Of a stretch of 64,000 nt of DNA, positions 664 to 21,020 are shown piece by piece. Origin of the DNA: Branchiostoma floridae (taxonomy: Eukaryota); contig NC_136205.1 of the NCBI RefSeq assembly GCF_015852565.1, positions 3,066,707 through 3,130,706 on the forward strand. Direction: 5' to 3'. The stretch's first letter is position 1. Every line of letters starts with the position of its first letter. A program made the translations under genes and the position numbers. The notes beneath the pieces were generated by a model. The model had not been told where the DNA came from. It was given only the letters and a program-made list of their open reading frames with translations, and did no database searches.

Positions 664-1142
664 CTAGTTGATGGCAAAAGGATGTTGTATCGGCTCAAGG
701 TACTTTGGAGGACGGATAATCCTCGTTGCGGGTGCATCATTCGGATAAGTGAGATCAGTCAGATGAGTGCCGTCCATGTTCGGCGGCGGTCTTGGTCCTC
801 GAAGCGGATTCAACTCCTTAGGCGCCCTCAACTTCTTTTTCCTTTTCTTCTTTCCTTTCTTCTTCTGCTTCCCCTCCTTTCCTGGCTCTTTGGCTTCGCC
901 CAAGCCCCTCTCAAGATCGGGAAGACGGTCGACCCTCTTGAATCCTTGGCCCGGTTTTTCCTTCAGGTCCATGACTTGTACTGGAGTAGTTTTCTTCAGC
1001 TGGGCGTACTGCACGTACTTGTACACGGCGGCGAACAGGACTGACATGGCGGCGAATCCTCCCACCGCTGCCCCGGCCAGGTAGATGGCAGAAGACGTGC
1101 CGGTGTTTTCGTCGTTGTCTTCCCTGCCAGTGATGATGGTTT
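664..1142 (-). CDS. Tie-like/EGF gene exon 25: juxtamembrane, TM helix and cytoplasmic tail, with stop
   Basis: rc translation: [51 protein letters not shown]...[17 protein letters not shown]...[16 protein letters not shown]. Acceptor ctgtacag at 1143-1150. Confidence 0.85.
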
Positions 1143-4100
1143 CTGTACAGTGATAAAGAAAGGGAGCATCAATCGGAAGTCTTACTAACTGATGTATCTT
1201 TCTTTTACAATGATGGCTGTAGAGCCCCTGGCTACGTTACCTGACTAGCACATAGTGTGTGTGTTTCTCTCTCTCTCTCTCTGGTTCTCCCCCTCTTTGT
1301 ATGTATATCTCTCTTTAAGTTAGTTCTTTTCTCTGCATGTGTCTTTCCCCCCTCTCTCTATCCCTCTGTTCTTTTATAACTGAAGTTAATCACCACTTCC
1401 GGACGCAATATTCTACTTTAGCGTATGTGTACACCGAAGGAACAGCTGTAATTTAAAGTTGCATTCCACCCGACGCCATATGAAAACTGCAAGTGCATCA
1501 TTATTATCAAATAATAAACAAAATTGATTGGTTAGAAGAATATTGTGTTTGAGTTTATAAAATTCATTACCACATTATTTGTGTATTATTAAAACATGTC
1601 TGTACGTACTTTCACAATGCCTGCCGTAGTTGTTTTCGGGGCAGAAGCAGACGTAGGTCTCCGTGTTGCTGACGCATGTGCCACCGTTCTCACACGGGTT
1701 GGTCGAACAAAACTCCCGCATTGTCTCTTCGGTGTTTGAAGCGTCTATAGTAAGGAAAAGACTTATCATATAATAAGTGTCATCGACTAGATATACTGAT
1801 GATAGTCAAAGGGACTCATGGGCAACACATCCAGCATTAATCATGTTCTTCCAGTTGTCGTGACTAGATTGATGAAACTACAGAAAATAACAGTTTCTCC
1901 CATCCGTGAACAGTTTCATCAGGTTGGTACGTCACTGAATAAAGAGAATCTTTTTACACAACCAGTGCTTTATTCTCACCGACTGTATATACATATGTAA
2001 ATACTTTTCGTTTTGTGACCGCATCTGAACTGTGAGCAGCGACACCTGTCCTGCAGTACAATGTGAACCAGTCAGAATTGCCCTGAAGAAGGTGACAGAC
2101 GGTCACCGAAACGTCGGTGAGAATAAAGCACTGGTTGTGTAAAAAGAGTCTCTTTATTCAATAACAGTTTCTATTGCAGGAAAGGAGAGTTACAAAGATA
2201 TGTAACTGTTTCATGACACTTAAAAGTGTAATTGCTACCCTGGTGATCATGAAACGATTAGTTTCAGAGCAGTTCATATGTCAGCACCAAGGACAGTGGG
2301 TTTTATTTATGTCAATTTGCCTTTAGACGTCGGTGATAGTTCTAGAGTAACCAACTTTACTTCTGTAGTTTAATGGATTGATTTGTTGCTATAGATTGGC
2401 TATCGATGGCAAAATGGAGAAAATAAATTGTCAAAGAATCGAAATTGTAAATTATTTTGTGTATATTAAGCCCCTGTCACACAGAAGGAAAAAATCTATC
2501 GGTCTACGAATCTGCAAGCTCTACATTTACAGCAGTAACACGCTGTGTATTCTTTCCATCATTATGAAGATTTTTAAGAATCGGTCGATGCTCGTAGGTC
2601 AATGAGCGGAGTTGAATGTGTTTGTGAAGAATTTTCTGGTTAAAAATTCTGGCGTTTTTCAGAGCTTACAACCTTCGGGCGATCAACAAGTTCAGTCGAA
2701 GCTCTTCGTTTGTGTGACAGGGGCTAAAAAAGTAGTTGCCTCGCATTGACAAGAATAAAATGTACGTACACGATGGGAAGGTGGGAATCCTTAGTTCACA
2801 GTTCTCCCCGACAAACCCGCTGGTGCACCGACATGTGTAGGTCACCACGCCGACCTCACAGGTTCCGCCGTTCAGACATGGCAGTGACGCGCAGGGGTCG
2901 GTGGTGTTCGGAGACATCGCAGTAGTGTTAGCATCATCTGCTGGATGGATTGAAAAAATCAACATCAACGTACAATGTATATGTAACATGAAATTTACAC
3001 TCAAGTGTGGCTATGACAAAATCGTGTTCCGAAATACCAATGTAGTTAGCATCTTCTGTGAGATGGATTGAAAACCTTGTCAGCATCAACGTATATTTTA
3101 TATATGACGTTTGTACTCAAATATGGCTTTGACAAAATCGTATTCCGAGACACCACTGTAGATAAACATCATCTGTGGGATAGATGGAATATATCGTCAA
3201 CATAAACAACAACGTCAACGTACATATTTGTATAACATTTGCACTCAAATTTGGCTATGACAAAATCGTGTTCCGAGACACCACCGTAGAGTTAGCATCA
3301 TCTGTTGGTGAAGCAAAAACGTCGTTAACGCATGGCGTTTGCACTCACGTGATTATGACGTAGGAATTGTCCGCCATATTGGATGATTATACTTTTAAGC
3401 TGACGATATTTACTTTGCAAGTTATTACAGCTTCGCAATTTCAACGTCGTTACATATCAGACACCGGGAGCTATTTTCATTTATGTTATTATCATTATTT
3501 CGATGAAGCTATAAATGAATTAGAAATATACAGGATTTTGCACTATGTTGTTATTCAGGCAAGATCAGTAAACATTCCATGAATTCTTACCTATTTCACA
3601 GTGTACGCCGTTGAAACCTTCCGGACAATCGCAGATGTACGTGCCATTTACCTCCAAACAGATACCACCGTTCAAACATGGATTAGGCGAACACTGTTCA
3701 GTCTCTGTGGAAAGTATAGCAAAAAAACGTTTTGATTGGATTTCATTAAACAATAAACAAAGCGAGTTAGCAATAACTATAATTGAATAAAAAGATTACC
3801 AAACGACAAATCCTAAATTAATGCCATGGTAAAGTGTAATCTTCAGACAAGATTAGCTCGGTGTCTGTGTAAGCTAAAAGGTACAAACTAAGACACTTCT
3901 TTCATTTCTCACATGGTTTTTACGGTGTGGAAATTAAATGTGACTTTCCTTACCTTCGCAATTGCCCCCACGGTATCCCACTGGGCATGCGCAGTTATAA
4001 CCATTCAACAGGTCCTCACAAGAGCCGCCATTTTGACAAGGGTTCGAAACACATTCGTCTATTTCTGCAAAACGGAAATAACAAATTAGAATATTCAGCA

Positions 4101-7100
4101 AAAATGGCAGAAATACTAAATTATGACCGAATCTAGGTCTGACAAAAATAACATTCTCCTCACCTTCTTCACATGCATCTCCTCTGAATCCTTCTGGGCA
4201 TGCGCAGGTGAATAAGTTGACGTCATCATAACATGTGCCCCCATTCTGACACGGACTGGACTGGCACTCATCAACGTCTGTAAAGGTCAAAGTTCAACAC
4301 AAATAGTTATCACGCACTATATGTATTGTTGGTCACAGAACGGGTTAGTAGTACATAACTTTAGGTTAGAAAATGACATTTTTTTAGCTTTATTACTGTA
4401 CTACCATTTTCGCAGTTGACTCCGTCAAAACCGACTGGACAGATACAGGTGTATGTCGCGACTAGGTCGTCACACGTGCCGCCATTTTGACAAGGACTGG
4501 ACTCACACTCGTTGATGTCTGAAAACAAAACGGAATGGACCAGTATTACATTGAGCACATTTTAGGTACAACTTGTGTTACGAAAAAAAAAAACGATAAC
4601 AAAGATTATAACCAGAACGATTTAATTTCTTTCTGCGTAGATATTAAATGACTAAAACAACTATTAAAGGAAGACAATCTAACGCACCTGTTTCACAGTT
4701 GACCCCCGCGTATCCAGGTGCGCAGGTACAGGTGTAGCTGTTCACCTGGTCCTGGCACGTGCCGCCATTTTGACATGGATTCGACTCACACTCGTTCCCT
4801 TCTGCAACAATGGAAATCAGAAAAACGATGACATAATTCTTAAATGATTTCCTTTACAAAAGATTCATCATACTTCAATAAAAATCATCATGAATTTCAG
4901 AGATGATAGAAGAGATATGGTACCATCTTCGCATGTTTCTCCACTGTAACCATCTAGGCATGCGCAGGTGAATGAGTTGACGTCATCATAACATGTGCCC
5001 CCATTCTGACACGGACTGGACTGGCACTCATCAATGTCTGGGTAGGTCAAAGTTCATCACAAAAAGTTATTTCGAAGCATGAAATCAACACTCAGTTTCA
5101 ATTGGAAAGTGGTAAGTAACAATAATTTACGAGTTCTATGAGTAATACTTTGAAATACATCTTACTTTCTTCACATCTGTCGCCGGTAAATCCGTCTACG
5201 CATGCGCAAGTGAAAGAGTTGACTCCGTCAGAGCAGCTTCCACCGTTTTGACACGGGCTGGACTTGCACTCATCAATGTCTGCAAAAACGTTTAACGTTG
5301 ATTATTTGAAGTAGCTAAACACAACACGATTGTTCGTGAAGTAACAAGTGAAGAAACTCCTTCCGTTGTACTTGAGTATGTGCACAAAAGAACGTCTTAC
5401 TTTCTTCACAGCTGTCGCCGGTAAATCCGTCTACACATGCGCAAGTGAAAAAGTTGACACCATCTGAGCAGCTTCCGCCATTTTGACAAGGGCTGGATTC
5501 ACACTCATCGATGTCTGAAAAAGATAGCGTTTATTATTTGAATCAACCAATCAAAGAGCTCAATATTTAGGAAAAGGTAAATGTCATTAAGTTCTTAAAT
5601 TGATTTTAATTTACAAATTGAAATAAGTCTTACTTTCTTCACATCTTTCGCCGGTAAAGCCATCTGCACATGTGCAGGTATATGAGTTTGCACCGTCCGT
5701 ACAGATGCCGCCATTTTGACACGGGTTGGACTCACATTCGTCAATGTCTGTAAAACGTTAACGTTCATTATTTGAATCAGCCAATCACAACACGATTGTT
5801 CGTGGAATAGCAAATAAAAGAAACTCCAATAATTGAGCTGTACTTATTTTGGACTTGTGTATGTGCGACAAAAATCTTACTTTCTTCACATCTGTCGCCG
5901 GTAAACCCATCCACGCATGCGCAAGTGAAAGAGTTGATGCCGTCAGAGCACCTACCGCCATTTTGACATGGGCTAGACTCGCACTCGTCGATATCTGAAA
6001 AGATAACGTTCATTTTTTAAACTAACCAATCAGAGAACTCAATATTCAGGAAAAAGCAAGTATCATAAACCTAATAAATTCATTTATGTATCGAAGTCTT
6101 ACTTTCTTCACATCTGTCACCGGTAAAGCCATCTGCGCATGTGCAGGTATATTTGTTGGCTCCATCCGTGCAGCTTCCGCCATTTTGACACGGGCTGGAC
6201 TCACACTCGTCAATGTCTGAATAAAAAGATAACGTTCAATATTTGAATCAACCAATCAAAACAGGTAATACGTCGACCACAGTTATACATCCAGGTAATA
6301 GGATACACCGAATAGCGGTTACTCAAATTCAAATGCAAACAACTGGAAAATCATGTCCAGTTGTTTCAGTAACTGCTATTTGGCACCAAACGTGTATAGT
6401 TAGGGGATGGCAAGAATCATGAACTTGGTAAATTGTACTTCAACAATATCTTACTTTCTTCGCAGAAGTCGCCCACAAACCCATCTGCGCATGTGCAGGT
6501 GTAAGAGTTTACTCCATCCGTACAGGTACCGCCATTTCGACACGGGCTGGACTCGCATTCGTCAACGTCTGAGTAAACATAGTAGAAAAATTGGTCAACG
6601 TTTGAACAATCACTTGGAAATATGTTTGGACACCATTAGGCTAAGTGTAAATTAGTTGTCATTGGTAAAACTGCACATTATAAAAGTGCTTATAATTTTA
6701 GAAAGATTTGTATTCGCCAAGGTCTAAGTAAATATAGCACATTTGACAACGTTTGGACAAACATTGAGAATGAACAAGTTTATAACATACTAAGTATGTT
6801 TGGACACCGTTAGAATTAGCTTAAATACTGTAAATGCAGAAATGTTCGCGGTGGATTAATATTCGCGGTTTTCGCGGTGCCCACTCCAACGCGAAATTAA
6901 AACTACCGCGAACAGTTTCCTATTATGGTATTAGACTGCAGTCTCTCGTGTTACCGCGAAATTAAAACGACCGCGAAAAGTCCTTTTTCCCCGCTACTGC
7001 GAAATTAAATCCCCGCGAACTTAAATGCATTTACAGTATGTTGTCATTGGTCTCACCATGCAATAAAATGCGAATAAACGTAGAGAGAAATTTTGATAAA

Positions 7101-10100
7101 CGTTAAAGATTTTTACCTTCCTCACACCTGTCGCCAATGAAACCGTCTGGGCATGCGCAGGTGTAAGAGTTGACGGCATCGCTACATATGCCTCTATTTT
7201 CACACGGATCGGATTCGCACTCGTCAATTTCTGGAACGAGAGGAATTAAAAGCTACTTCATAATTTCGCAATAACATGTGAAAACAAGTAAGTAAAACTA
7301 ATTGTCAAAGTGTCAAATACGTACCTAATATTTTACCTCACTGATTGAGAAACCTTTTATTTGGGTCACTTTTAGTCAAGGTCACCGTACAAGTTGATAG
7401 GTCATCTATGTTGAACAGGGTGGAAGACAAAGATTTGATATATACTATCATAATGATACTGGCAATCTCTTGTTGTGACGAAAACATGCATCTTTACGCT
7501 TGGTAATTTTTGTTCTTAATTTTGTATCAAATGAAGAATTCTGCACAGTACCTTGTTCACAGTTGTCTCCTCTATACCCGTCAGCACAGTCACAGACGTA
7601 TGAGTTGACTCCGTCTATACAGGCACCGCCATTCTGGCACGGACTCGACTCGCATTCGTCAACATCTGTTTGTAACAATAAAAGTTTTGTTAAACAAAAT
7701 CAAATTTAAAGAATGGTGTTGCTTTCGCGTTACTCAACAGCTTGGGCACCATTGACATTTTGTTTTAGTATATTTCATTTTTTCTAGATTCATGTGTATA
7801 AAGACTGACCAGGGCTTTAGAGCCTTTCTCTTTCCCACACCCGATTGCTGTTTATTACATCTTCATCTATATACTGGTAAAGACCAAAATGCCCAGTAGT
7901 ACTAAACAGTTGAACCGCCTAGAAACACATAAAGGCAAAATTCCCGTCGCTAACTATGGAAGCAGCAGTACCCTTAAGCTTAATACATGTATCATCTTTT
8001 AGAAATAATTTCTTTCTTGAATATTAGATTATCGAAGACAAAGCACATCACTTACCTGTCTCACAAACTTGCCCTATGAAGCCTGCCGGACATGCGCAGA
8101 CAAAACAAGTATCTTCATCGGCCGAGTAGGTGCAGGTCCCACCATTTTCGCAAGGGGTAGGGTCACAATAGTCCCGTTTCTCTGTCGAGATCAAAGTAGA
8201 GATAAAAGAAGCCTTTAAAATCTAGTATGTATCATCTGTGGCTGATTATATTCATAAAAGGCAATGTTTTGATAAAAGAAAGTATGGCATGAAAAAGGCA
8301 TCTCGTTATAATATGGCGTCAGTCTGACTTTCTTGCTCATGTACTGTCTACTGTGTTTGATACGTCAATGAAAGTTAGACATCCAGGTAATAAGATAGAC
8401 CAAAAAAGCGGTTACTCAAGCAACTGGAAATGATTTTGGAAACGGTCAGACGTTTCAGACAGCATCGCTATCTTTCGACATTGACGCTGAGGAAAGCTGT
8501 TTGAAGAGAAGGTCTTATATCCTACCTATGACTTGAGTTAAACTTAGTCTCAGTTAGTGCGTTGGATCATTACAGATTACCGTCTGCACCCCTGTCAATC
8601 ATCTGATGACGTACCTTCTTGGCAGGTCTGCCCCTCCCAGCCACACGCGCAAGTGCTGTCGGGACATTCTCCGGTGAAGCGGTTGCAGACGGCGTCATCA
8701 CGACAGTGGCAGGTAGAGGTGCATCCGGCACCAAACGTTCCCGCGCTGCACGCTACAGAATCACATAAGTCAACAATTTTACACTGAAACCTGAAGATCT
8801 GCTGAAGTACTAAACACAGCCGATAGGGGTCCATAATCGAAACGTCTAGATGTACCTAAACTAACATTACTTATCAAATGTATTAAAAGATGCATTCATA
8901 ACTTCTCGAGTAAGTGCTCAAAAACGAACCATTCTTGGTAAGGTACGTAAAGTGCTCTGTATACATGGAAACATGTTTTGGCATTCTTCACTTTCTTTCC
9001 CTGTGGTAAATATCACACATTGTACAGTTCTTTTTGAAGGTTAGGTCAATTTTGACTTTTTGAACAAGTGATAAAATATTGGCTCCCCCAGTGCTGCTGT
9101 TCAACTCACTATGTAAGGTGCAGTTGTCTACTGAAAACTACACAGAACGTTTAAAAAAGGAAATTGAATTGAACAGCAGGGACTACAAACCCAGACGGGG
9201 GACGATACAGACTACCTGGCATAATTGACCCGTCGTTGACGTCACGCTAACGTTCAGGCCACGTGACATCAAGCTATTTTAAATTGCGAGGACTGATCGA
9301 AAGCTTGTGCTTTACTTTGTGTGCAAAATATATAAATAAAATTAAATATAGAATATTAAGTGTTTACAATGATTTGAAATATTCTATTGACAAAGGAAAA
9401 CTGGTCATTACGCATGTAAACAATTACCAGGCTATCATATAGACAAGAAAGGCAGTGTCCCGTACCTGTGTCACATCTCAGACCCCGGAAGCCGGTGTTA
9501 CAGGAGCAGCCGTACGGGTCGGGGACACAGAACTGGAGTTCTGCGCATGCGTCAGGGCTGTCAACGCCATTGTCGCATTTGTGGGAACACGCCAGTCCGA
9601 ACCGGTTACTTCCGCAGGCTGAGGAGGGGGTGGGGTGAGTCATTCGTTTGTTTGTTTGTTTGTTTGTTTATTTGGTTTATTCACACACAATGTCGGAATA
9701 CTTCACAGTTGAGTGGTCTAAAAAGAAACTACTGATATGTAAAGCATCAGTAACAGCAGGCCCTAACCTGGAACCCACAGGGCAAACAAAAGAGTGGAAG
9801 GCATAAGAACAGCTGGAGAAGGGACACCGAGGAAGAGATGAGGAGCATCAGTAACAGCTGGCACGACCTGAGAAGGAAGGCACAGAGACGTGTACAGTGG
9901 AGGGCAATCATCGGTGGCCTATACTCCAACTGGGGCAAAGGGCCCAAGTAAGTAAAATATGTAAAAAAACAAACAAAATAAAAAATCGAACTTCGTGTCT
10001 TACGTATTTCGCAGCGGTCTCCCCGAAAGCCCGGTGGACAGATGCACTCCCCCGTGTCGGAGTGGCACATCCCACCGTGGAGGCAGTTCGGACACCCCCG

Positions 10101-13100
10101 GCTACATCCGGGACCCCACCGGTTTTCTTGACATCCTAAAGAAAAAATGACAGGTGTTAACACTCACGTGACTGTGTCTTAGGTACTGCCCGCCATGTTG
10201 GATGGTTAAAGCTGGAAGTTGCTAGGTAACTTTGAATTATCATATGCAGACGTCAGGTAATTATTACATCATATCATACAAATGCACATTTACAGGTATC
10301 CAGAAGGGAATCAACCAACATGGCAGACAGTAACATACCAAAACTATTTTTTTCAGAATGCTCTGGGGACAAGAACTGACATTCTAAGTGAATGTATGAT
10401 AAACGTTGTTTTTGAAGTCTCCATTGATCAATCGACCCATCAATCAATCAGTCAATAAATTAATCAATCAATTTACTTAAAGTTTTCTACTAACTTCTTG
10501 ATAAATTGTAGTTTACTAACAAGTCAGATTCAAGGATGTATTCGTGTGCTTTACAGAATATTGTGAAAAGGCAGTTAAAGACAATGGTCAGTGCAGCAAA
10601 CTGATAAGTTTAGTGTACCTCTGACAATGACTCTAATCATAGCGCCATTTTCCGGTTCTCCGTCGTAATAGCATCTGTACACCCCCGCGTGTTGAGTGGG
10701 ATCGGCCCCACTGATGACGTAAATGCTGCTGCTTGTCGATTTTTCCTGTGAAATATTTCACTTTGGTAAAAACCATAGCAATAAACGCAACGATGTTGTA
10801 TATGATATAAAAACTAAACTTGTAAGTGAAACATTGATATGATAACTGCGATGTTATATGGATAGGATTATATTTTGAAGAACGCACAAGATTTTTGCCT
10901 ACAAAGCCTTTTGCAAAAAGGCAAGCAAAGAGACGGAAGAATCGAGAGTATTTAAGTAATGATGACAGTTGACTCTTATGGGGTTATGGGTTTTTGATAG
11001 TACATAATTTCCATGTAATTCTTTACATTATGCGCTACGCAATACCAACATTATTGTCTACAATGCATAAAGCAACCGAGCAAACAAACAAACAAATGAA
11101 CGGAAACAAACAACCAAGAGAATTATAATAATAATGACTGTTTATTAATCAAACATTGAATCGCATCTCACCACCCCATTCTGTTTCCACCGGATCCGTC
11201 TGAACTGTGTCTGCTGCGCCGTCATGCGGATTGTCAAGGTATCGCCGCGGTTCACGGTCAAGGAGAAGGTTGGGGGAGTGAAGGAGGCTGCCGGGTGAAA
11301 AATAAGTAAATAAGAAACCTTGTAAATCTATATCTACAGAACTGCAATGACGTAAATCTCCAACTCATGGGATCGCGTGGCACGATCGGGAGCGCGTTGG
11401 TCTCAGGCCCGAGAGGTCCGGGGTTCAAATCCGCTTGCCGTGTCACCGATCTTGTGCCCTTGGGAAAGGCACTTTACATGACTTTCCTCACCTAACTCAG
11501 GTGTAAATGAGTACATCGCTGCGGCTAGTGGCAGTGACAGGCCTTTGTGGTGGTGACAGGCCATAGGGGCATGTTCGGGCATGACGCACCCGCCATGACA
11601 CATGAGTCAGGGGTAGGAGGAACCCCTTGCATCCTTGGTCGGAAGTCCTCCTAGGAGACGGAAACTCCTAACAACAAACCTGCATCTGCTGGGGCCGTCT
11701 TACACGTTGCATACAGTTGACGAGAGTTCCTTCACCTTAAAAACCCAAGTGCAGGCCAGGCCGACGGGTCGCCTTAAACCCGTCCGCCTACCATTGTCTT
11801 CCGAGACAGACGGATGCCAACACAACAAACCTCCAACTAGTGCGTCAATCCAATTCCAAACCCTCACAGACAGTACCCTCCGTCCCTGTGGCGTCGCCAA
11901 AAAATCTTCAATTTCAAAACAGGTAAGGGTTTCATTGAGCAAACTAAACGTCGTTTAACGTTACATACTAGGGCTGGGTATCGGTACTGCGTACCGGTAC
12001 AAAACCGGTTTTTCTTATTGGACCGGTCCAGAAAAACCGGACCTGAAAAAATTAGGTGGACCGGACGTTGGACCGATTCAAAAATTAACAGATTATTTTA
12101 TCAGGCATTCACACGTTTTAGCGCTTGCAGGTGGAAGAAAATAACAAGAGTGAAGTAGAGTAGAGTTTATAGTAATTTCTACCAAGTTTTACAGCAAATC
12201 GTACAGGTGTAGTTAGCGTTGTATGGTTTTAAAACGCCAGTGTAAGTCTAATACTCCACCAAACAGATCTCTTTGTAGTGAAATGGACCATTGGTATGAG
12301 TCATACTGCATCAGGTCCAGGTTCAGGTCCGGACCTGGACCTAATCCTTTGGACCTGAACCGGACCTGGACCTGAATTTTCGGTACCGGTACCCACCCCT
12401 ATTACATACCTATTCTCTTAATAGATAGGTACAAAATCAGTGCTATTCCCTCCTGGTCTGCACTATTAAATACTGCTTTATATTTATAGTATTTTTAATG
12501 TCACATTTACTAAATAGTAACGTTGATAATTGCCAATTTAAGTCTGGGTGTTAAGGTTGCTAAGGCTAAAACTGACTTAATTCACCGAGTTTTACAGCAA
12601 GGTATAAAGGTCTCAATATTGTTTTAGTATATTTATGTATTATTATGTCTATATGTATGTATGAATAAATCATTCAATAGAAACCATAAATGGTTCTTTT
12701 AGTTTTTATTTTACCTGATTCGAACATCTTCACTGCTGCCACTTCTTCTCCCTGGGCAGAACATTGGAAACCGCCGATTCGCTCATCCCTCATGAACGAG
12801 TAAAACGTCATCTCCTGTCCTGGCCAATCAGATTCATCCCCTCTCATGGCCCTTGGGTTGGACCACCGGGGTAAGCTTGAGGCAGACAGAGCGTCGAACG
12901 TCGTTACGTAGGGCGTGACGCATTTGACGTAGGTGGGCGAGCTGTCAACAAACGGGAACTTGTTGATGACCGTGATGTCTATAACAGCTCCTGGGTGTCA
13001 AAGTGAAATATAGGCAAATGTTTTAGAAAGGAATACTTAACCCTATTCAGACCGGTGTGACAGCGATCTCGCCCCCCCGTGATCTCGCCCCCCGGGGGGC

Positions 13101-16100
13101 GAAATCACTAGCGATCTCGCCCCCCCGGGGCGAAATCACTAGCGATCTCGCCCTCCCCGGCTAGTGATCTCGCCCCCCTACCTCGCCCCCCTTTAGCGAT
13201 TTCGCCCCCCCCCCAAAAAAAAACGGTTTTACATGACATTTTAAAAGTTGATTGGTATAAATCACAAAATTCAGTTTCAGAATGATATAAGTACATGCGT
13301 TTGATACATAACTCCATTTATAGTATCAATATTAACGTAATTACATGGTAATAAGATAGTTGAACTTGTTTCAGACAAGGAGGGTTGGGTCCCTTGTATT
13401 CCAATTATTGCATATACCTGAGTCTTGACATAAGATGTATTTCATTGTATTCACCTGTCCTCAAGCAACCTATATATCTCCAATATGAAGTTTCTACCAT
13501 GAAGTGACCACAAAATAACTATGTAATGTCTTTATTAATTATGCAAATATTAGGTATTAATTAGAATAACGCACATTTTGGTATATGCACCTGGCCAAGG
13601 GATATCTTCACCTCCAACATGACTGTTTTTTCTAGTATTTAGGAACTGATGCATTTACCCTTGTTTCTTAAGACTGATACTTTACCAGTGTTTGTGTAGC
13701 ATTTAGCAACAGCTATATCAACTTGCGCGTAGATAGTGTTTATAATGAGAAACTATTATTCACGTGTGTTTTTGTTAGTGCTTTGGAAATGTTTCCAGCA
13801 CAAGAAAGAAAACACTGTGACAAATTGAAAACATATAGCTGACGTATTCCGTACCATAGACGGTGTTGATTTATACGTTCGCAGTAGCACTGTTTTTATG
13901 CCACCTCAGCTGCAAAAATTGTCTTTTTCATTTCAATGTTATGTTTGTACCGAACAATATAGTATCGACTTTCGAGGTATGACATCTTACGGTACGGTAA
14001 TAAGGTGCCATATAGGTACCAGGTAACACACCATATACATTACTCCCCAGGTGCAGTATAGTGCCAGGTAGCGCACCTGTAATATGTAGTAACCAGCTGC
14101 TTTGGGGGGGGGGGGCGAAAACGCTAAAGGGGGGCGAAAACGCTAGTGATCTCGCCCCCCGGGGGGGGCGAGATCACAGGGGGGGCGAGATCGCTGTCAC
14201 ACCTGGCTTTTTTGGTCATCCCTGGACCGGGGGGGGGGGGCTTTTGAGGCCCTCCACTTCTAAGTCCTCTAACTCTCGAACGACGTGCCGTAAGGCCACC
14301 AAATTTTCAGGACATTTTATCGACATAATATCTGACAAGTATTTGGCGTTTGACGTTACGTTGACGTAAGATGACGTAATTATGACGTCATCAATTTGAT
14401 TATATTGGCCGGACCCATGAAAAAGGGTATTCTCAGAAAACTTCAAGTTATACTACAAAAATGTAACAATAAGTGCAGATAACAGAATAATAATGTTTAT
14501 TTCGACTTGTATTGCCAATAGCACCATCGATGACGTCATAATGACGTAAAAAAAATGACGTCATGCACATCTAAGATACGAGATAGGCTCCGCCATATTA
14601 TATCCACCACCTTGAATTTTTAAAACTTCTTTTTTTGCAACAAATAATCACAAAGGGCAATGGAAATAGACTACATTCATTCATTTAGATAGTTTTTGAT
14701 GAAAAAATACCAGGTAGTTACAAATTTTAAGGGAAAATAAGCTTGTTATTCTTGATCTGGCCATACGGTCCGCCATCTTGGATTTTGGGCTGATGACGTC
14801 ATCAAATTAGCATAATTTATGCATATATAATTATGAAAGATATGCTAAATAATATAAGATTTTATTTATGTAACAAATTAGCAGTAATATAGCAAATAAA
14901 TGTGAAAAATACATTGTTAGAACCAAAAATAGTGATTTTTGGCAAAACTGCCTGTCAGCAAACGGTTGCCATGGCAACACGAAAAATTGGAAGATTTGTC
15001 AAACTTCGCAAAATTGTTGCCAACAATATTTTAGGAAAACTCACCAAATTTGGTGGCTTTAGCGTAAGGCGTTCTGGCGTTATAGGACATCGAAGTTAGC
15101 GCGGGCCCCAAAAGCCCCCCCCCCCCCCGGTCTGAATAGGGTTAAACGCTGAAGGAAGTGTTTTTTATCAATAGATGATATATCAATGAATACATAACCA
15201 TTGGCAAAATTTCACTTATAAGATATGTTTTAAGTTTTTAAGTAAAAAAAAAACCCAGTCGTATAGGAAAACACACTGGGAATCATAAATGCAATCCCTG
15301 TTTTCTGAGATTGAATCATAAAAGTAATAAATATAGCATGATTAAACTATCAGACAAAGTAGTTAATATATGGAGAAATAACATTATTTTAAATTATAGA
15401 GGTACACATTGTATAGATAGTACTGTACACATAGTACTGTACGTAACTTAGCAACACACAATGTTTGCGAAAAAAACCTTCCAAATTGAAAAAAATGACG
15501 TTATTCTGATGTGTGTTTAAGTGCACTCTCGTTCTAAGAGCCAACACTTTCTCTCTCTTAAAGTATTATCAAAAATACATTTTCTACACTTTCTCTTCTT
15601 CAGAGAATGCTCTATGTGATTTCCCCTCTTAACCTATTTCCATGTCAGATATTTCTGGCCAAAACTCAAAACAGAAGAGCACAGTGATTCAAGACTCCAT
15701 TGTGCAAAACATTTGATATCGCCGCCATTGTAAAAAATCAAGGCCCCCTAGCCCCCACACTCGAGTGCTCTTGTAGATAAACACGTGATGAGATCCGGCT
15801 CTAACAATACAACATCGAAAACCTAATATGCCACTTGACCAATAAGCATCGCCCTTATAGAGACAAGACGCCACCTTTTGGCAAGAGGATTATGATAGAG
15901 AGCCCTCCATAGGTCAATTAGCCATTCCATGTTGTTGCTAAGCAACCAGCAATTACGTCTGTTGTCACTGACATGATCGAAGGAATCGATAAAAAACTAC
16001 GCTTTATTCGGGTTGAAGTTGTCAGTTTTTCCATAGTTATTTGTTTCTATACTACTGCCAGGAGAATTGTTTTCATTTTGAAACTACACAATGGTCCAAA

Positions 16101-17808
16101 AAGGATGTTTTTTTGATAAGTAAAGTGCTTGTAAAAATATAACTAGCTCAATAAATGTTGAGTCGTGCCCTTTTCGTAGTCATGTCATTAATACTCTGCC
16201 AACGATGCTGTTGATTGTTCTAGACGTCGTTTCTACGTGGTTTTATATTACCAACATGCGTCTCTTTAACGTGGTAATATCGCTGTAGATGAGATGGAAA
16301 ACAATCAAAAACAGGATTCTGACAAACTTGAAAAGGGTTATCAATTACAGGACAAACGCAGTGCTAAAACACTGTAACCATCACATAGCCGAACATGGCC
16401 TTCCGACCTTCGCTAGACCACTGTTGATAGTCGTGAGCAAGGTCATTTGTGATTGGGAGATGGTCTGGAGATCGTCTTGTATAAAAATAAGTTTTTTCGT
16501 CGTATGCACCAGCCGTTCGTGTGCAATATACTTTGAAAAAGAAAAGTCGGAAAATTCATATTCTGCTTGTATACTGTTAGAGGATCGAACTGTATCTAGA
16601 AAGACTGGATCCAAGTATACTTTCAAAAAAGAACTAAATACTTTTTTTTTACATGAAATCGAAACGAAATACCTTGCCATCAGGTCTTACATTTGAATAC
16701 ATATTTATTTGCAATAATACAGAAATAGCTAAGTTTACTCATGAGCCATTATTGTTGTTTAGTAAATAAAATCTTCAGGTCTAATTTGCATTTCTCTATG
16801 GTATTTTGAACTGAATTGACCAAACGAAAGTTTCCGTACTTTTGTTGAGTCAATATCAATAAACCGTCACTGTGATACAAAGTTTTTCGTACTACCAAAA
16901 TGTATTGTTGAGCCAAATGTGCATAGTGCTACGAGGGGCGTTCAAGAAGTAATCCACCTGACCCATTTCCCAAAGGAGGAGATTAATGAAACTTGGTGCA
17001 GTTATTAGTCTTTCTCTTCATAGGAATCACCCAGAGTTATGCATTTCTACCATCGTTTGATGCAGCTCTGTACACCGTTTTTGTAGGACGCCCCAGGTTG
17101 GTCCTGCAACAGATGCCTCATCAATGGCAGAAGAGGGACGACCAGGTCTGGGAGCTGTTTCCACAGACTTCCGGCCATGTTTGAATTCACAATGCCAGCG
17201 TTTTACAAGGTCATATGATGGGGAATCATCACCATAAGTTTCTTTTATTTCATCAAAAGTCTCATTTGGTGTGCGTCCTTTCAAATACAAAAACCGGATC
17301 ACTGCGCGACACTCAACTGGCTTCATTTCACACCTGGTCCATTTCACACCTGACTCAGTTCAAACACCTTTAAATCAAAAACCAAAATTAGTTCAGAGCT
17401 GTTTTTTGCAACATAACCCATAGAGATATGAATCATTACATATGCAAAATTTCATCTAGATCAGACAACTGGAAGTGGGTCAGGTGGATTACTTCTTGAA
17501 CGCCCCTCGATAGCTATAAAATGTGAATGACGAAAAGAAATCTTCTAGCAGCCAATGAGCTTCTTTAGTTTGAATGACTCAGCAAAATTATTGGTTAGAA
17601 ACTAAATTTTAGCGCTCCTAACTGTAATAAAGAAATTGATATTAAATTATAAGAGCTCAAGCATATCGCAGATCAGTGACCGCACACTGAACATAATGTG
17701 TAGTAAAAAAGTAAAAGCCTAACAAATGAATAAACAAAACAGATTAAACTCACCACATGTTGTCCAGAGAAGAATAAAGGTGCTAGAGAAAAGCAAAAGG
17801 TTGATCAT
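664..17808 (-). CDS. Gene model (25 coding exons): type-I membrane protein. Signal peptide, Tie/TEK-like Ig-Ig-EGFx3 module, 17 further EGF/cbEGF repeats, TM helix, about 95 aa Lys-rich tail. No kinase domain.
   Basis: All exons listed below join into one open frame. EGF exons are all phase 1-1 with canonical AG/GT. ATG at 17808-17806, stop at 666-664. Similarity to the TEK ectodomain and to fibropellin/Notch-type cbEGFs was judged by eye. Confidence 0.85.
1610..1744 (-). CDS. Tie-like/EGF gene exon 24: EGF-like repeat
   Basis: rc: [45 protein letters not shown]. Acceptor ctatag, donor gtacgt. Phase 1-1. Confidence 0.8.
1936..2160. repeat. Intronic inverted repeat (48-bp arms)
   Basis: tgaataaagagaatctttttacacaaccagtgctttattctcaccgac at 1936-1983. 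Its reverse complement lies at 2113-2160. Confidence 0.8.
2770..2940 (-). CDS. Tie-like/EGF gene exon 23: EGF-like repeat with N-terminal linker
   Basis: rc: [57 protein letters not shown]. Acceptor ccatccag, donor gtacgt. Phase 1-1. Confidence 0.8.
2931..3360. repeat. Tandem minisatellite, about 4 units of 117-129 bp; the first unit contains the exon 23 acceptor boundary
   Basis: Unit starts gcatcatctg / gcatcttctg / acatcatctg / gcatcatctg at 2931, 3049, 3166 and 3295. Shared core: caaaatcgtgttccga. Confidence 0.8.
3591..3704 (-). CDS. Tie-like/EGF gene exon 22: EGF-like repeat
   Basis: rc: [38 protein letters not shown]. 114 nt, AG/gtaag, phase 1-1. Confidence 0.85.
3954..4064 (-). CDS. 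Tie-like/EGF gene exon 21: cbEGF repeat
   Basis: rc: [37 protein letters not shown]. 111 nt, ttttgcag/gtaagg. Confidence 0.85.
4164..4277 (-). CDS. Tie-like/EGF gene exon 20: cbEGF repeat
   Basis: rc: [38 protein letters not shown]. 114 nt, tttacag/gtgagg. Confidence 0.85.
4405..4518 (-). CDS. Tie-like/EGF gene exon 19: cbEGF repeat
   Basis: rc: [38 protein letters not shown]. 114 nt, ttttcag/gtagta. Confidence 0.85.
4688..4801 (-). CDS. Tie-like/EGF gene exon 18: EGF repeat (not in the ORF track because shorter than 60 aa)
   Basis: rc: [38 protein letters not shown]. 114 nt, gttgcag/gtgcgt. Confidence 0.8.
4924..5037 (-). CDS. Tie-like/EGF gene exon 17: cbEGF repeat
   Basis: rc: [38 protein letters not shown]. 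114 nt, cccag/gtacca. Confidence 0.85.
5166..5279 (-). CDS. Tie-like/EGF gene exon 16: cbEGF repeat (tandem cassette array)
   Basis: rc: [38 protein letters not shown]. 114 nt, ttgcag/gtaag. Confidence 0.8.
5401..5514 (-). CDS. Tie-like/EGF gene exon 15: cbEGF repeat (tandem cassette array)
   Basis: rc: [38 protein letters not shown]. 114 nt, tttcag/gtaag. Confidence 0.8.
5634..5747 (-). CDS. Tie-like/EGF gene exon 14: cbEGF repeat (tandem cassette array)
   Basis: rc: [38 protein letters not shown]. The track ORF 5595..5813 is the wrong frame of this exon. Confidence 0.8.
5881..5994 (-). CDS. Tie-like/EGF gene exon 13: cbEGF repeat (tandem cassette array)
   Basis: rc: [38 protein letters not shown]. 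114 nt, tttcag/gtaag. Confidence 0.85.
6103..6216 (-). CDS. Tie-like/EGF gene exon 12: cbEGF repeat (tandem cassette array)
   Basis: rc: [38 protein letters not shown]. The track ORF 6046..6255 is the wrong frame. Confidence 0.8.
6271..6400. mobile_element. Interspersed repeat family B (catccaggtaata...caactgg hairpin element), intronic copy
   Basis: Similar to 8363-8535 and 25835-26005, and to 41405-41535 in reverse. Internal hairpin: gttactcaa..caactgg..ccagttg..agtaac. Confidence 0.6.
6455..6568 (-). CDS. Tie-like/EGF gene exon 11: cbEGF repeat
   Basis: rc: [38 protein letters not shown]. 114 nt, ctcag/gtaag. Confidence 0.8.
6826..7038. mobile_element. MITE family A, full copy (about 213 bp) in an intron
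   Basis: Terminal inverted repeats: tactgtaaatgcagaaatgttcgcgg ... ccgcgaacttaaatgcatttacagta. Confidence 0.8.
7117..7230 (-). CDS. Tie-like/EGF gene exon 10: cbEGF repeat
   Basis: rc: [38 protein letters not shown]. 114 nt, ccag/gtaaaa. The track ORF 7021..7227 is the wrong frame. Confidence 0.8.
7552..7665 (-). CDS. Tie-like/EGF gene exon 9: cbEGF repeat
   Basis: rc: [38 protein letters not shown]. 114 nt, aaacag/gtactg. Confidence 0.85.
8056..8181 (-). CDS. Tie-like/EGF gene exon 8: EGF repeat
   Basis: rc: [42 protein letters not shown]. 126 nt, cgacag/gtaagt. Confidence 0.8.
8363..8535 (+). mobile_element. Interspersed repeat family B copy
   Basis: gttagacatccaggtaataagata..gttactc..caactgga..ttttggaaacggtcagacgtt is nearly colinear with 25835-26005. 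Confidence 0.7.
8615..8752 (-). CDS. Tie-like/EGF gene exon 7: Tie-type EGF 3
   Basis: rc: [46 protein letters not shown]. Compare TEK [41 protein letters not shown]. 138 nt, phase 1-1. Confidence 0.85.
9466..9618 (-). CDS. Tie-like/EGF gene exon 6: Tie-type EGF 2
   Basis: rc: [50 protein letters not shown]. Compare [50 protein letters not shown]. 153 nt. Confidence 0.85.
10004..10135 (-). CDS. Tie-like/EGF gene exon 5: Tie-type EGF 1
   Basis: rc: [44 protein letters not shown]. Compare [47 protein letters not shown]. 132 nt, ctttag/gtaaga. Confidence 0.85.
10619..10745 (-). CDS. Tie-like/EGF gene exon 4: second half of Ig-like domain 2
   Basis: rc: [42 protein letters not shown] (Ig YxC motif). 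Compare TEK DAGVYSARYIGG...TRLIVRR. cacag/gtacac. Confidence 0.8.
11172..11287 (-). CDS. Tie-like/EGF gene exon 3: first half of Ig-like domain 2
   Basis: rc: [38 protein letters not shown]. Compare TEK [22 protein letters not shown]. ggcag/gtgaga. Confidence 0.8.
11360..11900 (+). mobile_element. tRNA-derived SINE-like element in an intron
   Basis: tRNA-like head with a T-arm box (ggggttcaaatcc at 11419-11431), followed by a body. The body's 11567-11815 segment recurs at 23247-23545. Confidence 0.65.
11969..12399. mobile_element. MITE with gggctgggtatcggtac / gtaccggtacccacccc termini
   Basis: Terminal inverted repeats at 11969-11990 and 12380-12399. The interior is rich in ggacc/ggtcc palindromes. 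Confidence 0.6.
12715..12990 (-). CDS. Tie-like/EGF gene exon 2: Tie-type N-terminal Ig-like domain 1
   Basis: rc: [92 protein letters not shown]. Compare TEK [27 protein letters not shown]. cccag/gtaaaa. Confidence 0.8.
13041..15141. mobile_element. Non-autonomous piggyBac-type element (composite), in intron 1 of the Tie-like gene
   Basis: 15-bp perfect TIR ccctattcagaccgg / ccggtctgaataggg. Flanked by TTAA on both sides (13037-13040 and 15142-15145). Subterminal gcgatctcgcc repeats. No transposase ORF. Confidence 0.75.
16932..17509 (-). mobile_element. Internally deleted mariner/Tc1-type element
   Basis: About 33-bp TIRs (cgaggggcgttcaagaagtaatccacctgaccc and its reverse complement). The residual ORF 17027..17347 encodes a mariner N-terminal HTH ([60 protein letters not shown]). 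Confidence 0.8.
17754..17808 (-). CDS. Tie-like/EGF gene exon 1: start codon and signal peptide
   Basis: rc: ATG ATC AAC... = [18 protein letters not shown], a hydrophobic signal peptide. Donor gtgagt at 17753. Phase 1 matches exon 2. Confidence 0.7.
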
Positions 17809-18329: not shown

Positions 18330-18488
18330 TACAATAGAAGCCAACCAATTGCACAGCGGATTAACGCACACTTCTGTTAACTGCACCGAATTCCAAAATC
18401 CCAAACCTGTACGGTCCAGCTGAATTCGCATTATTGCACCAGCCGGATAGTTGCACGAAATATGCTGGCAAATAGGCTGTGCAATTAA
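18330..18488. mobile_element. MITE family C (acagtagaagcc termini), left part of a copy split by a piggyBac-type insertion; the remainder is at 19697-19712
   Basis: Colinear with the intact copy at 33018-33185. It breaks exactly at its internal TTAA (gtgcaattaa). Confidence 0.7.
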
Positions 18489-19692
18489 CCCTCAAGCACC
18501 CGACCTTTATTTGCGACTAAAATGACCGAGTGGGGTCCAAACGGACCCCAAAATGTTTTGTTCATGAAATCACAGTTCCAATTACTATCGGTGATCATTG
18601 TACATACATTGCTTCGTCAATGTAAGAGGAATATTTTGACATGCTAAGGTGTTGATAATTCTACCTCATTATCATAATTTATGCAAAAGATCAGAAGGAC
18701 CATGTTTTGCACTAAACCTATTCTGACCAGAGAGGGGAATTTTGAGGCCCTCACTGCCTCAGCAACTTTTATGTCGCGTAACTCATGAACGGCTAGTGCT
18801 AAATCTACGAAACTTGGTGATATATCACAAAATATTGTTAGCAAAATTTTTTTTGTCAATAAAGTAAATTTATCTTGATTTGGGGTTGTCATGGCAACGG
18901 AATTCTGACAGGCATATTTTTGCAAAACTTTTCCAATTTCGATTAAAAAAAGGTTTTCTTAGTAAACCATGCTCATTTTCTTACAACAATAAAATTCTAT
19001 GAAGTTCAATGCTATTTACATGATTTAAAATTTATAATTTATGCTAATTTCATGACGTCATTAGTCAAAATCCAAAATGGCCGCCCTTTTAGCAAAATGA
19101 CGTCATAATGTCGTTATATTATATTTAACAATCTTTATTGACACGACAAAAGTATTATATGGTGATGACACAGAAGTTTTTATGAGGATTTAGTTTTACA
19201 TGCTTATTATCCCCTGAAATTTTGGTGGTGATAGGATAAGTAGTTAGGGAGTTAGACTCAAAAGTTTGTTTCAAAAGCTGCACTTTTTGGCTGGGGTCCG
19301 TTTGGACCCCAGACGGACTGATCACAGACTTTCTTTATACAGTCAAACCTGTCTATAGTGGCCACTCAAGGGACCGGACAAATGTGGCCATTATAGACAG
19401 GTGGTCTCTGTATAGAGGTGGCAACTTGTAGATAAAATACCCAAGGGACCGACAAAAAGTGGCCACTATGGACAGGTGGCCCCTCTGTAGAGGTGGCCCC
19501 TAATACAGGTTTGACTGTACCTTTGTAGCTTCCACAGTATTGTACCAATCTTCATAAAAACTTAGGAAAAGGTATAGAAGATAAAGGCTGACAAAGTCAC
19601 GGAAGGAATTTTTCTTCAGATAAAAAATGTTCAAATGGTACTTAAAAATTTACGCCTGGGGTCCAAATGGACCCCACTCGGGTGTTTGAGGG
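18489..19692. mobile_element. Non-autonomous piggyBac-type element between the two head-to-head genes
   Basis: TIR ccctcaagcacccga / tcgggtgtttgaggg (14 of 15 match). TTAA on both flanks (18485-18488 and 19693-19696). Subterminal gagtggggtccaaacggacccc inverted repeats. Confidence 0.75.
19341..19517. mobile_element. Palindromic MITE nested inside the 18489-19692 element
   Basis: Termini cagtcaaacctgt ... acaggtttgactg. The internal ggccac/gtggcc repeats fold back. Confidence 0.6.
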
Positions 19693-19699
19693 TTAAACG

Positions 19700-19960
19700 G
19701 CTTTACTGTACTAGTATGGCGTAACTGTGGAGTGTCCGGCTTAGAACGACCGTGCTGTTTGCAAACATATCGCTAGATGTCGCCCTTGCACCGTGACCTA
19801 TTGTTGTCATGTGACGTGTTTGTTGACGATGAGGTCATAGCCCGAAATGGGAAGTTTTGTAGTTGTGCGAGTTCTTGCAGCTGCGTTGTCATCTTTATCG
19901 ACGTGTGCGAGCTTGCAGACGTCTTTATAGCGAGTGCGGAGCTCCTCAAAGATTCTTAAG
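19700..19960 (+). other. PARP4: Putative non-coding first exon (5'UTR) of the PARP4-like gene
   Basis: CpG-containing segment ending in a strong donor (cttaag|gtacgtag at 19960/19961). The coding exon 1 ATG sits directly on an acceptor, so an upstream UTR exon is required. The 5' limit is unknown. Confidence 0.3.
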
Positions 19961-20586
19961 GTACGTAGACTGAAGGCTTATGATTACAAGTCGTAGTATA
20001 ACTGATCTCTTTCATACTTCATGATGCTAGACGACTTGAGCTGCAATGCTTATTGCTTTGGTCATGGATACGTTTCAGAACCATGCATAAGAATTGTTGT
20101 ATATAGCAATTTTCACACCAAGGTGCTGAGATAGAATAGCTGATGGATATGGTTAAACTTCTGACTTCTTTTTTGCATACATAAGTAAGCCAGCGTAAAT
20201 TACAGCAGCTTATTTTTTAAAGATCATTCTTAAATCGTCTTTCCCAATTTATGTTCACTGTTACTTCCGGGTTTGGCGTTTCAAGTAAGTTGTTCTTACC
20301 GGCAAGTTGTGACTTAAGCAACATTTATTCCGCGACTTTGAGACTTCATTTATGCTCTAGTTTCAGAAAAAAAGTTTCTGTATTTTGCAGAAGGTAATTT
20401 GCATGCGCATGAGCATTGTATATTTAATAGCTAGAATAATATATTCATCATACCTCTAAACGTTAACTTACAATACTTGAGTACTGTGTTATTATGAGTG
20501 CATGTGTGTGTGTGTAGCCTTCATCACAGGCTCCAGCGGGGATGGCTGTTATTTTAGGTGTGTGTGTGTGTGTGGGGGGGGGGGTC

Positions 20587-21020
20587 TCTAGAGTTTCAAC
20601 GTTGATTTAATAAGGTTCTCAAATGGGAAAGGCAGCTTGCCGTGGAAAGGCGGTCTGCCTAAACACCACAAACGACCACAAACGACTCAGAAACACCACA
20701 AACGACCACAAACGACTCTAATATGCAGTGTGGCGCTCTGCAAGCACGCATTCATTGACATCGCTTCCATCTTGAAACCGGCGGACTAACTCGAAATAAC
20801 TGGTGAATACGTAGGACTTGCTGCACTCTTTAAATTCATAAATGTGTAAACAATGTCTCCAGAGCGCCACACAAGGTTTTTGACCCATATACACTGCATG
20901 TTAGAGTCGTTTGTGGTCGTTTGTGGTGTTTAGGCACACCCTGGAAGGGTCCAGTTTTGCACCGCTGCTGGTGGCATTATCTAGAACCTTAGTCAACGTT
21001 GAAAGTTGCGAACTACCTTC
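20587..21020. mobile_element. Foldback/MITE-like element with nested inverted repeats
   Basis: The inner arms, aaacaccacaaacgaccacaaacgactc (x2) at 20660-20720, have their reverse complement at 20905-20935. Outer arms are at 20587-20625 and 20980-21020. Confidence 0.6.

Follow-up and report, generated by a model that had tools for sequence, protein, structure and literature searches.

On the minus strand of a 64-kb stretch of amphioxus DNA (Branchiostoma floridae, contig NC_136205.1; the whole stretch is hereafter the window, and coordinates refer to it unless another locus is named), 25 exons running from 17808 to 664 encode a predicted receptor that joins the head of the vertebrate angiopoietin receptor TIE2/TEK to a long EGF-repeat stalk and has no kinase. 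We consider it very likely that they form one Branchiostoma gene for a 1,166-residue type I membrane glycoprotein, which is the ortholog of the B. belcheri RefSeq protein XP_019636960.1 and not a truncated Tie kinase, and which is one of several proteins in amphioxus and Ciona that combine this head with EGF repeats and a transmembrane (TM) helix. The model comprises, in order, a cleavable signal peptide, a Tie-type head (Ig1-Ig2-EGF1-3), a stalk of 17 EGFs, a TM helix and a non-catalytic tail of 119 residues. Most proteins with a Tie-type head are kinase-less, and the gene is an uncharacterised variant among them, with an ortholog that RefSeq already lists under a misleading name; on both counts the novelty is lower than the initial annotation, which a model had made from the letters of the window, implied.

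Structure of the predicted protein

The 25 exons total 3,501 nt, that is 1,166 codons and a single terminal stop (664–666). EGF exons were located by a scan for cysteine-rich open segments, and their borders were then set from the sequence. AG acceptor and GT donor borders are present at all six head exons, the 17 EGF exons and the TM/tail exon, while exon 1 has a GT donor; every exon junction is in phase 1.

The head (313 residues) matches the human TIE2/TEK chains 4k0v, 2gy5 and 9lv4 in the PDB at E=3.1e-50 (phmmer; chain 4k0v_A). The match is one alignment of query residues 3–312 with chain residues 2–319, covering Ig1, Ig2 and all three EGFs, and identity to TIE2 and TIE1 is approximately 38–43% over Ig2-EGF3. 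After TIE2, the PDB ranking continues with an unrelated Ig protein at 1.7e-8, followed by an EGF protein at 7e-7 and by SCARF1, aligned at 5e-6 over only about 60 residues; Pfam reports only sub-threshold Ig and EGF signals on the head. Since the rival matches are weak and the Pfam signals lie below threshold, the affinity for TEK is a family-level signal rather than generic Ig/EGF similarity, and by its sequence the head is a true homologue of the Ig1-Ig2-EGF1-3 module of TIE2. The colinearity of the six head exons (12990–8615) with the N-terminal region of TEK, proposed in the initial annotation, is thereby borne out, with AG/GT borders and an open frame throughout; the four matches to TEK that it quoted are all present in the HMMER alignment to the three human chains. 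Membership of the MEGF10/11 or SREC/SCARF families, an alternative named at the same time, was rejected: SCARF1 reaches E=5e-6 over some 60 residues against 3.1e-50 over some 310 for TEK. The EMI domain of MEGF10/11 is not found by Pfam in the head or in the full model. The head retains the canonical second cysteine of Ig2 (GVYRCYY), which is lost in TEK and TIE1. It is 79% identical to a 299-residue B. lanceolatum protein annotated as 'angiopoietin-1 receptor-like' (P0001); a single-sequence AlphaFold2 model of P0001 was unusable, with a mean predicted local distance difference test (pLDDT) score of 38. Vertebrate TIE2/TEK and TIE1 (2GY5, 2GY7, 4K0V) are likewise type I membrane proteins with a colinear, homologous head, but the window protein has 17 Notch-type EGFs in place of Ig3 and FN3, and no kinase.

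Thirteen of the 17 stalk EGFs carry the calcium-binding signature, counts that reproduce those first reported for the locus. The Pfam EGF family matches the full model at E=5e-120 in 16 stretches. Consensus sites for O-glucose (C-x-S-x-P/A-C), for O-fucose (C-x4-S/T-C) and for Asp/Asn hydroxylation are established, and the stalk holds 14, 12 and 13 of them, respectively. On account of these counts and the calcium-binding signatures, the stalk can be called Notch-like in its chemistry. Tandem calcium-binding EGFs in phase-1 exons, with O-glycosylation and hydroxylation consensus sites, are shared with Notch, Delta, Crumbs and the sea-urchin fibropellins; the DSL, MNNL, LNR, NOD, ankyrin, laminin-G and avidin-like domains of those proteins are not. 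Pfam finds none of these domains, nor a CUB domain, in the model (DSL appears only at E=0.13, below the cut-off). Sea-urchin fibropellins are secreted EGF-repeat proteins with a C-terminal avidin-like domain, whereas the window protein spans the membrane by a TM helix, ends in a cytoplasmic tail and has no avidin or CUB match. Given that DSL, LNR, ankyrin and avidin-like domains are missing, the names given in RefSeq to such proteins describe only their EGF repeats.

The number of stalk EGFs differs between species: 17 in the window, 14 in B. lanceolatum and nine in the B. belcheri model. The EGF exons at 5160–6263 form a tandem array with periods of approximately 235 and 469 bp and an 82% match at the higher-order period. 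This array points to recent two-exon duplications, which would account for the differences in EGF number. The B. belcheri model is without seven plus one of the EGFs of the window, and the block of seven falls at a 2.6-kb gap of N in that assembly (18358–20971 of the B. belcheri locus, L002).

The TM helix contains a GxxxG-like motif. In the tail that follows, a polybasic run and the sequence PPKY (a PPxY motif) are kept in three species, and there is a proline-rich stretch as well; PPxY motifs are bound by WW domains. The tail itself has no Pfam or PDB match. When exon 25 is compared with its counterpart in B. lanceolatum over 157 aligned codons, 10, 11 and 43 differences fall at codon positions 1, 2 and 3, and the stop is shared; 43 of the 64 nucleotide differences are thus at third positions, and the codon changes comprise 34 synonymous and 19 non-synonymous. 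Identity to B. belcheri is 92% in the tail and 79% in the head, which makes the tail the best-conserved part of the protein. The third-position bias and the 92% identity argue that the tail is coding and under purifying selection.

No Ig3, FN3 or kinase domain is found beyond the head in the 1,166-residue model, where Pfam reports EGF families only. The same search detects Ig, three FN3, SAM and PK_Tyr domains in two amphioxus Tie receptor tyrosine kinases (RTKs), P0060 (B. lanceolatum, 1,605 residues) and P0041 (1,761 residues). A tblastn search for Ig3, FN3, SAM and kinase exons, with the post-head parts of P0060, P0041 and a fish TEK as queries, gave no match across the whole 64-kb window. 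Could kinase exons nonetheless lie beyond its left end, spliced from the last exon, so that a real Tie kinase is seen here in truncated form? The window extends only 663 bp past the stop codon and the DNA further downstream in this genome is outside the view. However, the frame and stop of exon 25 are conserved in both B. lanceolatum (locus L001; GCA_035083965.1, CM068864.1) and B. belcheri, and both annotations end the coding sequence (CDS) at that point. DNA conservation reaches about 67 nt beyond the stop, as expected of a 3′ untranslated region, and no kinase, SAM, FN3 or Ig3 exon occurs within 2.2 kb past the stop in L001 or within 10 kb in L002 (including a 1.6-kb gap of N). The Ig3 and FN3 domains that separate head from TM helix in the true amphioxus Tie RTKs are missing as well, and a truncated kinase is scarcely credible. 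A kinase-less protein without Ig3 or FN3, with one TM helix and a short non-catalytic tail ending at 664–666, had been described in the initial annotation; the conserved stop and the negative Pfam and tblastn results in the window, L001 and L002 agree with that description.

Orthologues, paralogues and the probable unity of the locus

A HMMER search of 1.84 billion cluster representatives with P0001 as query returned 1,155 matches at E≤1e-3, 104 of them at E≤1e-30. The best match (P0003, 866 residues, E=7e-167) is XP_019636960.1, named 'fibropellin-1-like', from B. belcheri. It is a single RefSeq model with signal peptide, Tie head, EGF array, TM helix and a near-identical tail, and it corresponds to one gene call at L002. 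A global alignment keeps the window model and P0003 colinear across all junctions, among them those between head and stalk (…CQE|EKRDYC…) and between stalk and TM segment (…CEK|TII…), with 83% identity over 862 aligned residues; the missing EGFs (7+1) are the sole differences in layout. The B. lanceolatum locus is also colinear with the window, having a signal-peptide exon, Ig1 to EGF3, 14 stalk EGF exons and a TM/tail exon in identical phases, and the layout thus holds across three Branchiostoma species. Both loci are orthologous to the window gene and share its junctions, signal peptide, head, stalk, TM helix and tail; they differ in the number of stalk EGFs and, for B. lanceolatum, in an annotation that is split.

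All 25 exons join in one frame of 1,166 codons, which had been taken as an argument against an artefactual merge of two genes. The frame is confirmed, but as an argument it is weak, because all exons are symmetric phase-1 modules and any combination of them would stay open. The case for a single gene comes instead from the use of the head–stalk junction in XP_019636960.1 (which shares the C-terminus too), from the common layout of the paralogues described below, and from the head–stalk intron, which is short and start-less. Within its 433 bp this intron has neither AATAAA nor ATTAAA, nor any in-frame ATG that would read through into exon 8; its counterpart in B. lanceolatum measures about 300 bp. 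On this evidence, the locus is very likely one gene and not a merge, as first proposed.

Several observations weigh against this conclusion or parts of it. In B. lanceolatum, NCBI annotates the locus as two separate calls, P0001 and a protein of 772 residues. P0001, with its 299 residues, ends in an alternative 38-nt exon (L001 15500–15537) just upstream of EGF3, and the full-length protein could be accompanied by a short soluble isoform. No entry in the protein collection is identical to the 1,166-residue model, and the polybasic and PPxY motifs of the tail are short and possibly fortuitous, though conserved in three species. Taken furthest, the split annotation would mean two products, a secreted soluble Tie head of about 300 residues and a separate EGF-repeat membrane protein, with the fusion as an annotation artefact; the symmetric phase-1 exons would make any such join frame-compatible. 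We regard this as unlikely. The 772-residue call begins at an ATG (L001 15652) that lies inside the EGF3 exon and out of frame, in a frame open for 279 codons, and its exact CDS could not be rebuilt. A type I membrane protein requires a signal peptide, and a stalk-only product would have no exon to supply one. The window holds no conserved counterpart of the alternative terminal exon, with conservation starting only 11 nt upstream of EGF3, and the head–stalk intron offers neither start codon nor polyadenylation signal. Finally, a Tie head is joined to EGFs and a TM helix in the B. belcheri RefSeq protein, in three paralogues and in one Ciona protein. The split in B. lanceolatum is probably an annotation artefact, or at most marks a minor soluble isoform, to judge from the sequences compared.

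The paralogues are the amphioxus proteins P0007 ('delta-like protein D'), P0014 and P0015; with P0037 of Ciona intestinalis (XP_078485810.1) they share, as independent predictions, the succession of head, EGFs, TM helix and short tail with no catalytic domain. In P0037 the head occupies residues 32–371, followed by EGFs, a TM helix at 584 and a 33-residue tail. P0014, another 'fibropellin-1-like' protein, carries a kringle and represents a cluster whose nine members span several genomes and were annotated by two or more sources. The heads of the paralogues and of P0037 are 41–47% identical to the window head over Ig2-EGF3. Unlike the orthologues, these proteins have tails that are unrelated in sequence to that of the window protein, and approximately two to nine EGFs.

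To place the head more widely, the 150 best cluster representatives carrying a Tie-type head were sorted by crude motif tests on what are predicted models. A tyrosine-kinase catalytic-loop motif is present in nine and a tyrosine-phosphatase catalytic motif in 18 (P0005, P0011, P0013, P0051 and 14 others), among them a 2,009-residue Patiria miniata protein named 'receptor-type tyrosine-protein phosphatase T-like'. Neither motif occurs in 46 with a TM helix and a tail shorter than 260 residues, or in 17 with a TM helix and a longer tail; the remaining 60 have no TM helix after the head and are secreted or fragmentary models. The 18 phosphatase-bearing representatives indicate that the fusion partners of Tie-type heads include receptor phosphatases in addition to kinases. 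Named carriers come from amphioxus, Ciona, echinoderms, one hemichordate, vertebrates and one sea spider. Within these predicted models the trend is clear: the Tie head behaves as a shuffled module, found mostly outside kinases. A literature search did not find kinase-less Tie-head proteins described.

Lineage-specific duplications of Tie kinases have occurred in amphioxus and/or Ciona (PMC7249569). The amphioxus RTKs P0060 and P0041 have a Tie-type head with 39–44% identity to that of the window, and P0041 also has calcium-binding EGFs after the head; unlike the window protein, both bear Ig, three FN3, SAM and tyrosine-kinase domains. In a neighbour-joining bootstrap tree built on Ig2-EGF3, the window gene groups with P0003 (100%), while the amphioxus RTK-type heads form a clade of their own (99%) that excludes it; the gene is therefore not a recent derivative by kinase loss. 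The phylogeny with Tie RTKs that the initial annotation had suggested thus separates the window gene from the amphioxus kinases but leaves the deep nodes unsupported (2.5–4.5% for a kinase-less clade, 41% for vertebrates with ambulacrarian RTKs). Bootstrap values stay below 30% for any grouping of the window gene with the paralogues and the Ciona protein.

Features of the locus and its neighbourhood

The features of the gene and the other elements noted in the window are listed below. The counterpart of exon 1 in B. lanceolatum is MTPPLLFSSTLILLWSTCG, and an orthologous signal-peptide exon is also present in B. belcheri. The junctions of exons 22–24 are identical in B. belcheri P0003.

Table 1. 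Coordinates and supporting evidence for the exons of the Tie-head gene and for other elements of the window.
Feature	Position	Strand	Evidence
Exon 1: ATG and signal peptide	17754..17808	-	ATG, hydrophobic core, GT donor
Exon 2: Tie-type Ig1	12715..12990	-	AG/GT borders, open frame, aligned to TIE2 Ig1
Exon 3: Tie-type Ig2, first half	11172..11287	-	AG/GT borders, alignment to TIE2
Exon 4: Ig2, second half; spans position of TIE2 angiopoietin-binding strand	10619..10745	-	Borders, TIE2 alignment
Exon 5: head EGF1	10004..10135	-	Borders, TIE2 alignment
Exon 6: head EGF2	9466..9618	-	Borders, TIE2 alignment
Exon 7: head EGF3	8615..8752	-	Borders, TIE2 alignment; 86% nucleotide identity to B. lanceolatum
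Head-to-stalk intron, 433 bp	8182..8614	-	Junction used in XP_019636960.1
Exon 8: first stalk EGF, not calcium-binding, 126 nt	8056..8181	-	AG/GT borders
Exons 9–21: 13 calcium-binding EGF exons	3954..7665	-	AG/GT borders; twelve of 114 nt, last of 111 nt
Exons 9–15	7665-7552, 7230-7117, 6568-6455, 6216-6103, 5994-5881, 5747-5634, 5514-5401	-	
Exons 16–21	5279-5166, 5037-4924, 4801-4688, 4518-4405, 4277-4164, 4064-3954	-	
Exons 22–24: three non-calcium-binding EGFs	3704-3591 (114 nt), 2940-2770 (171 nt), 1744-1610 (135 nt)	-	
Exon 25: juxtamembrane segment, TM helix, 119-residue tail, stop 664-666	664..1142	-	Conserved frame and stop
Conserved block in intron 1, ~900 bp	15470-16352 (L001 11163-12028; L002 11512-12333)		70–81% nucleotide identity in three amphioxus species
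Direct repeats of a GC-rich unit	13020-13200	-	
Mos1-type HTH_48 transposase fragment in intron 1	17027-17347	-	Pfam, E=1.5e-9
RVT_1 reverse-transcriptase open reading frame (ORF), 392 residues	31113-32291	+	E=6e-19
14-3-3 C-terminal exon	43792-44187	+	E=2e-30
Low-complexity ORF, 793 residues	46374-48755		No Pfam match
GT4-conflict ORF, 408 residues, uninterrupted	60018-61244	-	PF20706, full length, E=3e-77
ORF of 280 residues	62805-63647	-	No Pfam match

Outside the exons and their short flanks, the window and B. lanceolatum share conserved DNA only in a single block of intron 1 and around the promoter, where the proximal DNA is 78% conserved. The intron 1 block is single-copy in the window, and translation of its open segments gives no higher conservation than the DNA itself shows. 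It resembles a conserved non-coding element and is possibly an intronic enhancer. The direct repeats, with the unit GGGGCGAGATCGCTAGTGATTTCGCCCC, lie just upstream of the Ig1 exon and are probably a short interspersed or satellite-like repeat of intron 1.

The 14-3-3 exon, which lies upstream of the Tie-like gene on the plus strand, matches a neighbouring PARP/VIT/VWA/14-3-3 call in B. lanceolatum, so that synteny is conserved (window ~20000–49000, plus strand). The transposase fragment and the reverse-transcriptase ORF are transposon remnants, and the 793-residue ORF contains poly-Q and a proline-rich stretch. Near the right end of the window lies the GT4-conflict ORF, with the 280-residue ORF as its neighbour; GT4-conflict proteins are family 4 glycosyltransferases of conflict systems. 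From its sequence this ORF is bacterial-type and apparently intronless; it may have been acquired horizontally or be related to immunity.

Ligand binding, mode of action and wider meaning

In human TIE2, Ig2 residues F161–E169 supply most of the angiopoietin-binding energy, and the substitutions F161A and P166A abolish measurable binding; as the motif is defined, this strand is specific to TIE2 and absent from TIE1 (PMC8294587). The strand is not conserved in the window protein. In the HMMER alignment F161–S164 fall opposite a gap and V165, P166, R167, H168 and E169 are replaced by V, E, K, S and T, respectively, although alignments of such loops are uncertain. The family alignment places a shorter, unrelated loop at this position in all amphioxus heads, true kinases included. 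With the same caution about loop alignment, nothing in the sequence favours angiopoietin binding of the vertebrate style, which is unsupported for this head.

These results bear on the suggestion, made in the initial annotation, that the protein acts as a ligand trap. In its full form, the protein would be a membrane-anchored decoy for angiopoietin-like ligands, competing with the amphioxus Tie kinases and sending no signal of its own. Its head is indeed homologous to the ligand-binding region of TIE2, it has no kinase, and the genuine Tie RTKs of amphioxus (P0060 and P0041) are possible competitors. Yet the TIE2 strand (F161–E169; PMC8294587) has given way to a shorter, unrelated loop in which P166 is Glu, and the tail (92%) is more conserved than the head (79%), a sign of purifying selection on a segment that a pure decoy would not need. 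The strong conservation of the tail disfavours a passive decoy, and we think a ligand trap quite improbable.

More likely is a receptor that acts through its tail. The calcium-stiffened stalk would hold the head tens of nanometres above the membrane, where the head may bind an extracellular partner, either a soluble ligand or another Tie-type ectodomain. The outcome, in signalling or trafficking, would then be relayed by adaptor proteins that dock on the conserved tail and not by an intrinsic kinase.

A bolder proposal, which we hold only tentatively and think rather unlikely, is that the kinase-less proteins with Tie head and EGF stalk in amphioxus and Ciona represent an ancient chordate receptor family that vertebrates have lost. 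Its members might modulate Tie kinases via head-to-head heteromerization, or might act by a Notch-like release of the tail. The orphan receptor TIE1, which heteromerizes with TIE2, is the model for the first mode; in the Notch-like variant, the tail with its polybasic and PPxY motifs would be freed after ligand-induced cleavage. If the proposal is true, the ligand-binding head of Tie receptors has evolved as a free-standing unit, shuffled between proteins and employed mostly in ones that are not kinases.

The TIE2 head is usually taken as the hallmark of one vertebrate family of endothelial kinases; here it is borne by a Notch-like stalk, in a protein whose tail is strongly conserved and non-catalytic. 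Across public protein sets, Tie-type heads are far more often carried by kinase-less or phosphatase-bearing proteins than by kinases. The names 'fibropellin-1-like', 'delta-like protein D' and 'NOTCH2' that databases give to such proteins are misleading and are corrected here, and the B. lanceolatum model is flagged as probably split. For the biology of amphioxus, the gene offers a testable candidate for a Tie co-receptor or for an independent adhesion or signalling receptor. For the family, the findings suggest that the angiopoietin–Tie system may have its origin in the shuffling of modules in invertebrate deuterostomes and not in a fixed kinase receptor.

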